A stretch of 7,087 nucleotides of DNA from Candidatus Helarchaeota ASGARD archaeon Hel_GB_B (GTDB taxonomy: Archaea > Asgardarchaeota > Lokiarchaeia > Helarchaeales > HEL-GB-B), in assembly GCA_005191425.1 (NCBI GenBank), contig SUPR01000138.1:1-7087 (forward strand), given 5' to 3'. Below, piece by piece: positions 2,042-7,087 of this stretch. How positions within the stretch are numbered: the stretch's first letter is position 1; each line of letters begins with the position of its first letter. The notes beneath the pieces are model-generated. The model saw only the letters and a program-made list of their open reading frames with translations, searched no databases and had not been told where the DNA came from. A program made the translations under genes and the position numbers.

Positions 2042-2150
2042 GCCCCTGTGGTGTAGTCCGGCTTAGCATCTAGGACTGTCACTCCTAGAACCCGGGTTCA
2101 AAGTATATTCGATAAAATGAGTATACGAACATATCCCGGCGGGGGCGCCA
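2042..2150 (+). tRNA. tRNA-Asp(GTC) with a 31-nt non-canonical T-loop intron and encoded CCA
   Basis: Acceptor stem GCCCCTG(2042-2048)/CGGGGGC(2140-2146); discriminator G2147; CCA 2148-2150. D stem GTGT/GCAT. Anticodon stem TAGGA/TCCTA with loop CT-GTC-AC (anticodon 2078-2080). T stem CCGGG/CCCGG; TTCAAAT loop is restored once the intron is removed. Confidence 0.97.
2102..2132 (+). other. tRNA-Asp intron at position 58/59 (BHB-type)
   Basis: Central helix GTTC(2096-2099)/GAAC(2127-2130); 3-nt bulges AAA(2100-2102) and ATA(2131-2133); intron helix GTATATTC(2103-2110)/GAGTATAC(2119-2126). Cutting after the second bulge base gives 2102-2132. Position 59/60 (2103-2133) would give the same mature sequence. 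Confidence 0.85.
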
Positions 2151-2196
2151 CTACTTTAAAAAATTCTAAAACATGGACACGTAGCTCAGCTAGGAT

Positions 2197-2223
2197 AATA
2201 CTCTTAAAAATAGTATTCCTAAC
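2197..2223 (+). other. tRNA-Lys D-loop intron (~27 nt, 20a/21 or equivalently 21/22; boundaries +/-1)
   Basis: Helix TAGG(2191-2194)/CCTA(2218-2221); 3' bulge ACA(2222-2224); intron stem AATACT(2197-2202)/AGTATT(2212-2217). Removal gives the normal D loop AGCTAGGATA before GAGC. The 5' bulge is only 2 nt if the stem pairs fully. Confidence 0.8.
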
Positions 2224-2240
2224 AGAGCGTTGGGCTTTTA

Positions 2241-2260
2241 AAGAGAATTAAACTAAAGAA
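2241..2260 (+). other. tRNA-Lys canonical 37/38 intron (20 nt)
   Basis: Strict BHB: CTTT(2235-2238)/AAAG(2255-2258); bulges TAA(2239-2241) and AAA(2259-2261); 2-bp intron helix AG/CT. Confidence 0.92.
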
Positions 2261-2296
2261 ACCCAATGGTCGCGGGTTCAATTCCCGTCGTGTCCG

Positions 2297-6128: not shown

Positions 6129-7087
6129 TTGCTTGAAGAAGAAACTATTAATAACGGGCGATTTGTACAAGAGTTACTACCACCTGTTAGGACTACAAAA
6201 GGAGATATAGAGCCTTTTGATAGTAAAAAGATACTTGAAAGTTTAATGAGAGAAACTGGAATTAATAGAGATGCAGCAACTAAAGTTACTAAACAAGTCT
6301 TAAAAAGAATTGTAAGTTCGGATATTGAATGGCTCTCTGGTCCCGAAATTAGGGAGTTGTGTTGCTCAGTTCTCGCAGAAAACGGTTTGTTAGCTGCTAG
6401 AAAAAGATATACTCGGTTAGGAATGCCTTTAATGGACTACGAAGAGTTATTAAAAAATGGTATTAAGGAAAATGCAAACCAATATAACAATCCCGAGTCT
6501 ATTCATTCTTGGGTCGCAGACCGGATAGCTTCTGAATATGCTTTACTCAGACTTTTACCGGAACAACATTCTAATGCGCACCTCCGTGGTGATATTCACA
6601 TTCATATGCTCAGATATTTTGATTTGAGGCCTTTTTGTCAGGAATGGGACCTCCGGGTCATACTTAAACACGGGCTACCACCAACGGGCTGGAGCCATTC
6701 CGCCGTAAGTTCCCCCGCAAAACACGCCATGGTCGCAGTTTTACACGCTGCAAAATGGCTTGGTATTGTCCAGGGCGAATTTTCGGGTGGACAGGGTTAT
6801 GACAATTTTACGGTCTTTTTAGCCCCGTATTTAAGGGGAAAATCACATGAAGAACTTGTCCAATTAGCACAATGCTTTCTGTATGAATCAAACCAAATTT
6901 ACGCAGCAAGAGGTGCACAGGTACCATTTACGTCCATATCATGCATTCCGACCGTTCCCAAGAGTCTTATGGACGTCCCTGCCGTCTCATTTGGGGGTAA
7001 AATAGACGGTGTTTATGGGGACTATGTTGACGAGTGCAATAGATTTTTCAGGGCAATCAACGAGGTCTACATGGCGGGAGATGGGAC
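6129..7087 (+). CDS. nrdD: Anaerobic (class III) ribonucleoside-triphosphate reductase with N-terminal ATP-cone, 3'-truncated
   Basis: Translated by hand; open from TTG 6129 (GAGGG at 6116-6120; in-frame TAA at 6105-6107) to the window end. ATP-cone-like PVRTTKGDIEPFDSKKILESL...SGPEIRELCCSVL; ENANQYNNPES; AHLRGDIHIH; RPFCQEWDLR; QGEFSGGQGYDNFTVFLAPY; ARGAQVPFTS. Confidence 0.95.
   Translation, partial: MLEEETINNGRFVQELLPPVRTTKGDIEPFDSKKILESLMRETGINRDAATKVTKQVLKRIVSSDIEWLSGPEIRELCCSVLAENGLLAARKRYTRLGMPLMDYEELLKNGIKENANQYNNPESIHSWVADRIASEYALLRLLPEQHSNAHLRGDIHIHMLRYFDLRPFCQEWDLRVILKHGLPPTGWSHSAVSSPAKHAMVAVLHAAKWLGIVQGEFSGGQGYDNFTVFLAPYLRGKSHEELVQLAQCFLYESNQIYAARGAQVPFTSISCIPTVPKSLMDVPAVSFGGKIDGVYGDYVDECNRFFRAINEVYMAGDG

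Follow-up and report, generated by a model that had tools for sequence, protein, structure and literature searches.

In archaeal tRNA precursors the sites of splicing follow from the geometry of a bulge-helix-bulge (BHB) motif, in which each strand of a 4-bp helix continues on its 3' side into a 3-nt bulge, with cleavage following the second base of the bulge. Within the T arm, the sites listed for Crenarchaeota are 53/54, 56/57, and 59/60, in an enumeration that does not name 58/59 and that ends in 'etc.' (Yoshihisa 2014, PMC4090602). In the Thermoproteales type at 59/60, one strand of the helix is formed by T54-N57 and the whole T stem serves as the outer helix. In three complete Asgard genomes, 92-95% of the tRNA genes bear introns, often at non-canonical sites (Valentin-Alvarado 2024, PMC11291895), and a census of 90 Asgard genomes finds two concentrations of called introns, at 37/38 and within the T arm, describes T-arm inserts as most often forming canonical motifs, and reports two EndA paralogues in most genomes (Goswami et al., bioRxiv 10.64898/2026.10.13.758758). 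Here, we describe a tRNA-Asp gene that shares with these published cases an Asgard host with several introns per gene and many non-canonical sites. With the T-arm introns of Crenarchaeota and Thermoproteales it shares protein splicing, a BHB that is built partly from exon sequence, and rapid gain and loss between relatives. However, the published Asgard studies centre on the Atabeyarchaeia and the Jordiarchaeia/Freyarchaeia, and their main text contains neither this lineage nor this gene nor a 58/59 site. Interrupted tRNA genes, among them genes with T-arm introns, are thus already known and common in Asgard archaea, and only the 58/59 register of the present intron is unusual; the gene adds to a published phenomenon one case with an uncommon register, shifted by one base.

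The window, by which we mean the whole stretch of DNA analysed (7,087 nt), is the entire 7-kb contig C46 of an assembly of 3.54 Mb with 28% G+C, a completeness of 93.7% and an estimated contamination of 4.9%. A full-length actin match (446 bits) fits the Asgard identity of the host, and a profilin search of the genome remained below the cut-off. The tRNA-Asp(GTC) gene is of archaeal type, lies on the forward strand at 2042-2150 and encodes its CCA end. Exon 1 (2042..2101) holds the 5' strand of the acceptor stem, the D arm, the anticodon arm with the anticodon GTC at 2078-2080, a variable region of 4 nt, the 5' strand of the T stem (2092-2096) and the T-loop nucleotides 54-58, terminating in T54 T55 C56 A57 A58 (2097-2101). 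After an intron of 31 nt (2102..2132), exon 2 (2133..2150) starts with A59 T60 and continues with the 3' strand of the T stem (2135-2139), the 3' strand of the acceptor stem (2140-2146), the discriminator G73 and CCA (2148-2150). When the exons are joined (2042-2101 and 2133-2150), ARAGORN folds the resulting 78-nt tRNA-Asp(GTC) into a perfect cloverleaf, in which a 5-bp stem carries the 7-nt loop with the anticodon GTC, the T loop is the 7-nt TTCAAAT, and all stems are without defect. Across 28 related genomes, the tRNA-Asp genes share 79-85% identity with these exons. An earlier sequence-only reading of this DNA had proposed a tRNA-Asp with a 31-nt intron in the T loop at 58/59, and both its length and its placement hold up, the former because removal of 2102-2132 restores the tRNA, the latter on the joined-exon cloverleaf and the register of the splice motif. 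The gene is a real archaeal tRNA-Asp(GTC) with a T-loop intron of the protein-spliced kind.

This gene escapes standard annotation, as that reading had anticipated. In the unspliced window no tRNA was called by ARAGORN, and the unspliced tRNA-Asp reached only 14.6 bits vs a cut-off of 29 bits with the Rfam model RF00005, the alignment covering its 5' part alone; in a scan of the window at the Rfam gathering score, the sole match was the adjacent tRNA-Lys. These misses confirm a gap in annotation and are no argument against a tRNA-Asp gene. In the whole genome, ARAGORN and Infernal each found 16 tRNA genes, and a scan for T arms with a matching acceptor stem located about 29 credible ones, the majority well beyond 76 nt in length; probably many more, including genes with inserts in the T stem or the acceptor stem, remain unfound. 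One ARAGORN call in this genome, a 'tRNA-Asp with 44-nt intron' on contig C166, proved to be a mis-call: the tRNA there is interrupted and has a CGA anticodon arm. Most tRNA genes of this genome, tRNA-Asp included, escape both ARAGORN and the Rfam tRNA model, and quality checks and codon-usage studies of Asgard genomes will report as missing tRNAs that are present. Inserts of 16-58 nt interrupt the T loop in 10 of the approximately 29 locatable genes, nine at 59/60 with complete motifs and one, tRNA-Asp, at 58/59. The sequence-only reading had called T-arm introns rare, which does not apply to this lineage, given this proportion and the published frequency of such introns in Asgard archaea.

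The 59/60 class is defined by a helix strand of nucleotides 54-57, by the whole 5-bp T stem lying outside the motif, and by a cut after nucleotide 59, an arrangement that differs from the one found in the window tRNA-Asp. In this gene the motif is displaced by one base, so that the exon strand of the central helix is G53 T54 T55 C56 (2096..2099, forward strand). As the earlier reading had claimed, it pairs with the intron sequence GAAC (2127..2130), and the helix GTTC:GAAC consists of four Watson-Crick pairs. The 5' bulge is formed by A57 and A58 of the exon together with A2102 of the intron (2100..2102) and the 3' bulge by A2131 and T2132 of the intron together with A59 of the exon (2131..2133), from which the geometry rule predicts a 5' cut at 2101/2102 and a 3' cut at 2132/2133. 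The intron hairpin h' fills the space between bulge and helix (2103..2126); in the RNAfold minimum-energy structure, 2103-2110 pair with 2119-2126 (8 bp) and enclose a loop of 8 nt (2111-2118). When the intron was shuffled 200,000 times, a central helix of 4 bp together with an intron helix of at least 5 bp arose in 40 cases, and with one of at least 8 bp in 2; the motif is not due to chance.

As A59 repeats the base before it, the junctions 58/59 and 59/60 cannot be told apart from the product sequence, and the same gene and the same mature tRNA would also result if the cuts fell after A59 and before T60 in a poorer motif. The site 59/60 is the usual one for T-loop introns, both in this genome (9/10) and in the sister-family alignment of distinct T-loop introns of 30 nt (16/16), and cutting there would leave the native T stem whole. 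In the 59/60 register, however, the intron sequence AACA faces TTCA and no 4-bp helix is formed, while an alternative pairing of CGAA with TTCA directs the cuts to positions that yield a T loop of 9 nt; a BHB geometry that yields a 7-nt T loop exists only in the 58/59 register. Moreover, the layout of GAAC (GAAT in one relative, G026) followed by two bases and AT is kept in both relatives that have the intron, G001 and G026, and fits 58/59. Cutting at 59/60 is on these grounds improbable, and 58/59 is the register used in the following.

The price of the 58/59 register is a competition with the T stem, as G53 is also the partner of C61. The outer helix can be obtained in two ways, either by a slip of the T stem that pairs G52.U60, G51-C61, and G50-C62 (3 bp, -7.9 kcal/mol), or by the native T stem without its G53-C61 pair (4 bp, -14.3 kcal/mol); the 3' bulge has the standard 3 nt in the slipped form only and is 5 nt in the other. 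Since the outer helix needs either a slip of the T stem or the loss of one pair, the motif is a relaxed one. In this the earlier reading was right about the outer side, but it had given the slipped helix 2 bp, and with G50-C62 added there are three. In the minimum-energy fold (-16.8 kcal/mol) the T stem is whole and the central helix unformed, so that the enzyme would need to capture a less stable form of the precursor.

The intron can be followed into related genomes. In another species of the genus (G001) the locus of the tRNA-Asp and tRNA-Lys genes is 66% identical to that of the window, and its tRNA-Asp has an intron of 32 nt at the same site, in which GAAC is kept and is followed by AC/AT. 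The intron helix of this relative is an unrelated one of 6 bp, CATGTC with GGCATG. That GAAC is kept and the hairpin replaced matches what selection on structure predicts. This homologous intron also bears on a further reading of the locus, according to which the insert is an assembly artefact, or an insertion private to one strain, without biological role. The window indeed comes from a metagenome-assembled genome and is a contig of only 7 kb, but an independent JGI metagenome contig (L045) is identical to it, and several sequencing runs, which belong to different studies and none of which is listed as an RNA run, yielded contigs with its DNA, among them one variant that differs at two bases. 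The variant, a strain present at low depth in run X3, carries A2102T in the third base of the 5' bulge and T2113A in the hairpin loop, with all helices intact. Next to these records, an artefact or a private insertion is hardly conceivable, and the insert is taken here as a genuine intron. No second copy of it was found in the genome by BLAST, and there is accordingly no sign of intron copying.

A strict 58/59 pattern occurs in 3 of 400 Asgard genomes, namely the present one (G000), G001, and G026, a member of another family. A 58/59 pattern applied to genome and metagenome contigs retrieved, apart from two chance matches to unrelated DNA, only the G001 record and the exact copy of the window, and brought no further sequence diversity. 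In G026 (locus L031, G026:C93:3981-4039, minus strand) the tRNA-Asp intron has 30 nt and the 58/59 register, with GAAT in place of GAAC, so that the pairing is kept through a G.U pair. Neither of the two examined genus-mates of G026 (G010 and G032) has a T-loop intron, which suggests a separate gain in G026. The sister family contributes 16 distinct tRNA-Asp genes whose 30-nt intron sits at 59/60; there T54-A57 supplies the helix strand, and the outer helix is the entire T stem. When these genes are aligned, 8 of 9 intron hairpin pairs are changed on both sides, and the covariation score was reached in none of 500 shuffles, with the qualification that this covariation comes from the 59/60 series and that conservation in the exact 58/59 register rests on three sequences. 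The 58/59 intron may be regarded as a descendant of the 59/60 type that slid by one base, or as its parallel, which arose at least twice (in the genus of the window and in G026) and whose motif competes with the T stem. This view is speculative and, taken as a whole, rather unlikely. If true, the locus would offer a natural setting in which to test intron sliding and the tolerance of the Asgard (alpha-beta)2 enzyme to a displaced register.

Among order-mates the tRNA-Asp intron is found elsewhere in the gene, in the variable region in G002 and in the D arm in G004. In related Asgard genomes the gene is interrupted in the variable region, after the anticodon stem, in the D arm, in the T loop, or at two of these sites combined (loci L020 in G002, L032 in G004, L025-L027 in G035, G033, and G011, and L014, L021-L023, and L028-L031). 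Such varied sites in one orthologous gene fit a rapid gain and loss of introns. Two further candidates, on contig C115 of G004 (L009) and in G006 (L019), were rejected as tRNA-Asp, both being tRNA-Glu genes.

The machinery predicted from the genome agrees with splicing at such a site. Two genes for subunits of the splicing endonuclease (PF01974) are present, on contigs C36 and C98. The 192-aa protein on C36 can be aligned from end to end with the A. pernix EndA catalytic subunit (E 2.5e-42) and retains the motifs containing the catalytic Tyr, His, and Lys. It also has the extra loop, with the lysine K48 opposite K44 of A. pernix, the loop lysine that is required there to cut non-standard introns (Hirata 2011, PMC3241643). 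In the C98 protein (198 aa), the segment where the catalytic His is expected has an Ala in place of the His of M. jannaschii EndA, and the protein is likely the structural partner subunit. The pair in this way resembles the (alpha-beta)2 EndA of A. pernix (PDB 3P1Z/3AJV), in which the loop with its lysine is likewise found and a paralogue without the His is the structural part. Unlike the crenarchaeal beta subunit, however, C98 is closest to the EndA proteins of M. kandleri and M. jannaschii. This enzyme type with its Crenarchaea-specific loop, the L1 insert, has already been reported in Asgard archaea (Kaneta 2018, PMC5829648). A gene for the ligase RtcB is present as well (E 9e-171). As judged from these subunit sequences, the genome is predicted to encode an (alpha-beta)2 splicing endonuclease with a broad-specificity loop. 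The earlier reading had held that a T-arm intron needs a broad-specificity EndA of the alpha2beta2 or epsilon2 form; the loop of C36 agrees with this need, and of the two forms named it is the former that the genome points to and not epsilon2.

With high confidence, then, we regard the locus as a working tRNA-Asp(GTC) gene, the 58/59 intron of which is cut by the (alpha-beta)2 enzyme and the exons of which are joined by RtcB. The tRNA-Asp would be transcribed, probably together with the tRNA-Lys, as a precursor in which G53-C56 can pair with GAAC of the intron to give the 4-bp central helix of the BHB, and the T stem would complete the motif by giving up G53-C61 or by slipping one base. The endonuclease, with C36 as catalytic and C98 as structural subunit, would then cut after A58 and before A59, whereupon RtcB would ligate the exons and probably circularize the 31-nt intron as well. 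The T loop of 7 nt, the complete T stem, and the contacts between T loop and D loop would form only after splicing. It is a reasonable inference that before this step the T loop is unable to fold or to be modified.

In a scan of the whole assembly two Asp anticodon arms were found, that of the window gene and one on contig C49, and the former is the sole one of archaeal type. As the sole archaeal-type tRNA-Asp of the genome, the window gene would make every protein dependent on its splicing. The C49 gene (L046) is an intron-less tRNA-Asp(GTC) on the minus strand at 6462-6537 with a bacterial-type body, and with 67.8 bits it is the best tRNA match in the assembly. Upstream of it is a TTGACA box, downstream a hairpin with a T run that resembles an intrinsic terminator, and the 6.9-kb contig further carries DKNYY, NUDIX, and PLD-like genes. 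In 40 related genomes this tRNA had one partial match and was absent from the other 39, and an Atlas search to place the contig taxonomically gave weak and mixed hits. Given the type of the tRNA and its absence from related genomes, the terminator, and the genes nearby, C49 is probably contamination or foreign DNA.

The sequence-only reading had named an intron-less tRNA-Asp(GTC) elsewhere in the genome, together with an RNA that stays unspliced, as the mark of a pseudogene. Such a gene does exist, and with an intact tRNA of this kind at hand one could picture the window gene as a decaying or silent copy, which retains its insert while the Asp codons are read by the C49 tRNA. Yet that tRNA is bacterial in type within an assembly of 4.9% estimated contamination, has the TTGACA box, the hairpin with T run, and the DKNYY neighbour, and is all but missing from relatives (39/40), while the window gene shows no stem defect, compensating changes in its congener G001, and a place in the Asp-Lys gene pair that is conserved across the order. 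Pseudogene status does not follow from the C49 copy, and a decaying or silent window gene is very improbable; the tRNA-Asp of the window is treated as the working gene.

The DNA upstream of the two tRNA genes (1346-2041) consists of about 700 bases with 20% G+C. This region contains no open frame of at least 60 aa, and no clear promoter box was seen directly upstream of tRNA-Asp. The tRNA-Lys(TTT) gene (2175..2296, forward strand; Rfam RF00005, 50.8 bits) begins 24 nt downstream of tRNA-Asp, and the two genes are also adjacent in G001, G002, and G004; they are probably co-transcribed, as far as this arrangement tells. The Lys genes of G002 and G004 are without intron, and that of G001 is interrupted at the same two sites as the gene of the window, where the Rfam alignment accommodates two large inserts. 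The first of them, of about 28 nt, lies in the D loop and is flanked by the complementary sequences TAGG and CCTA, and the second is an intron of 20 nt at 37/38, the AAAG of which pairs with C32-T35.
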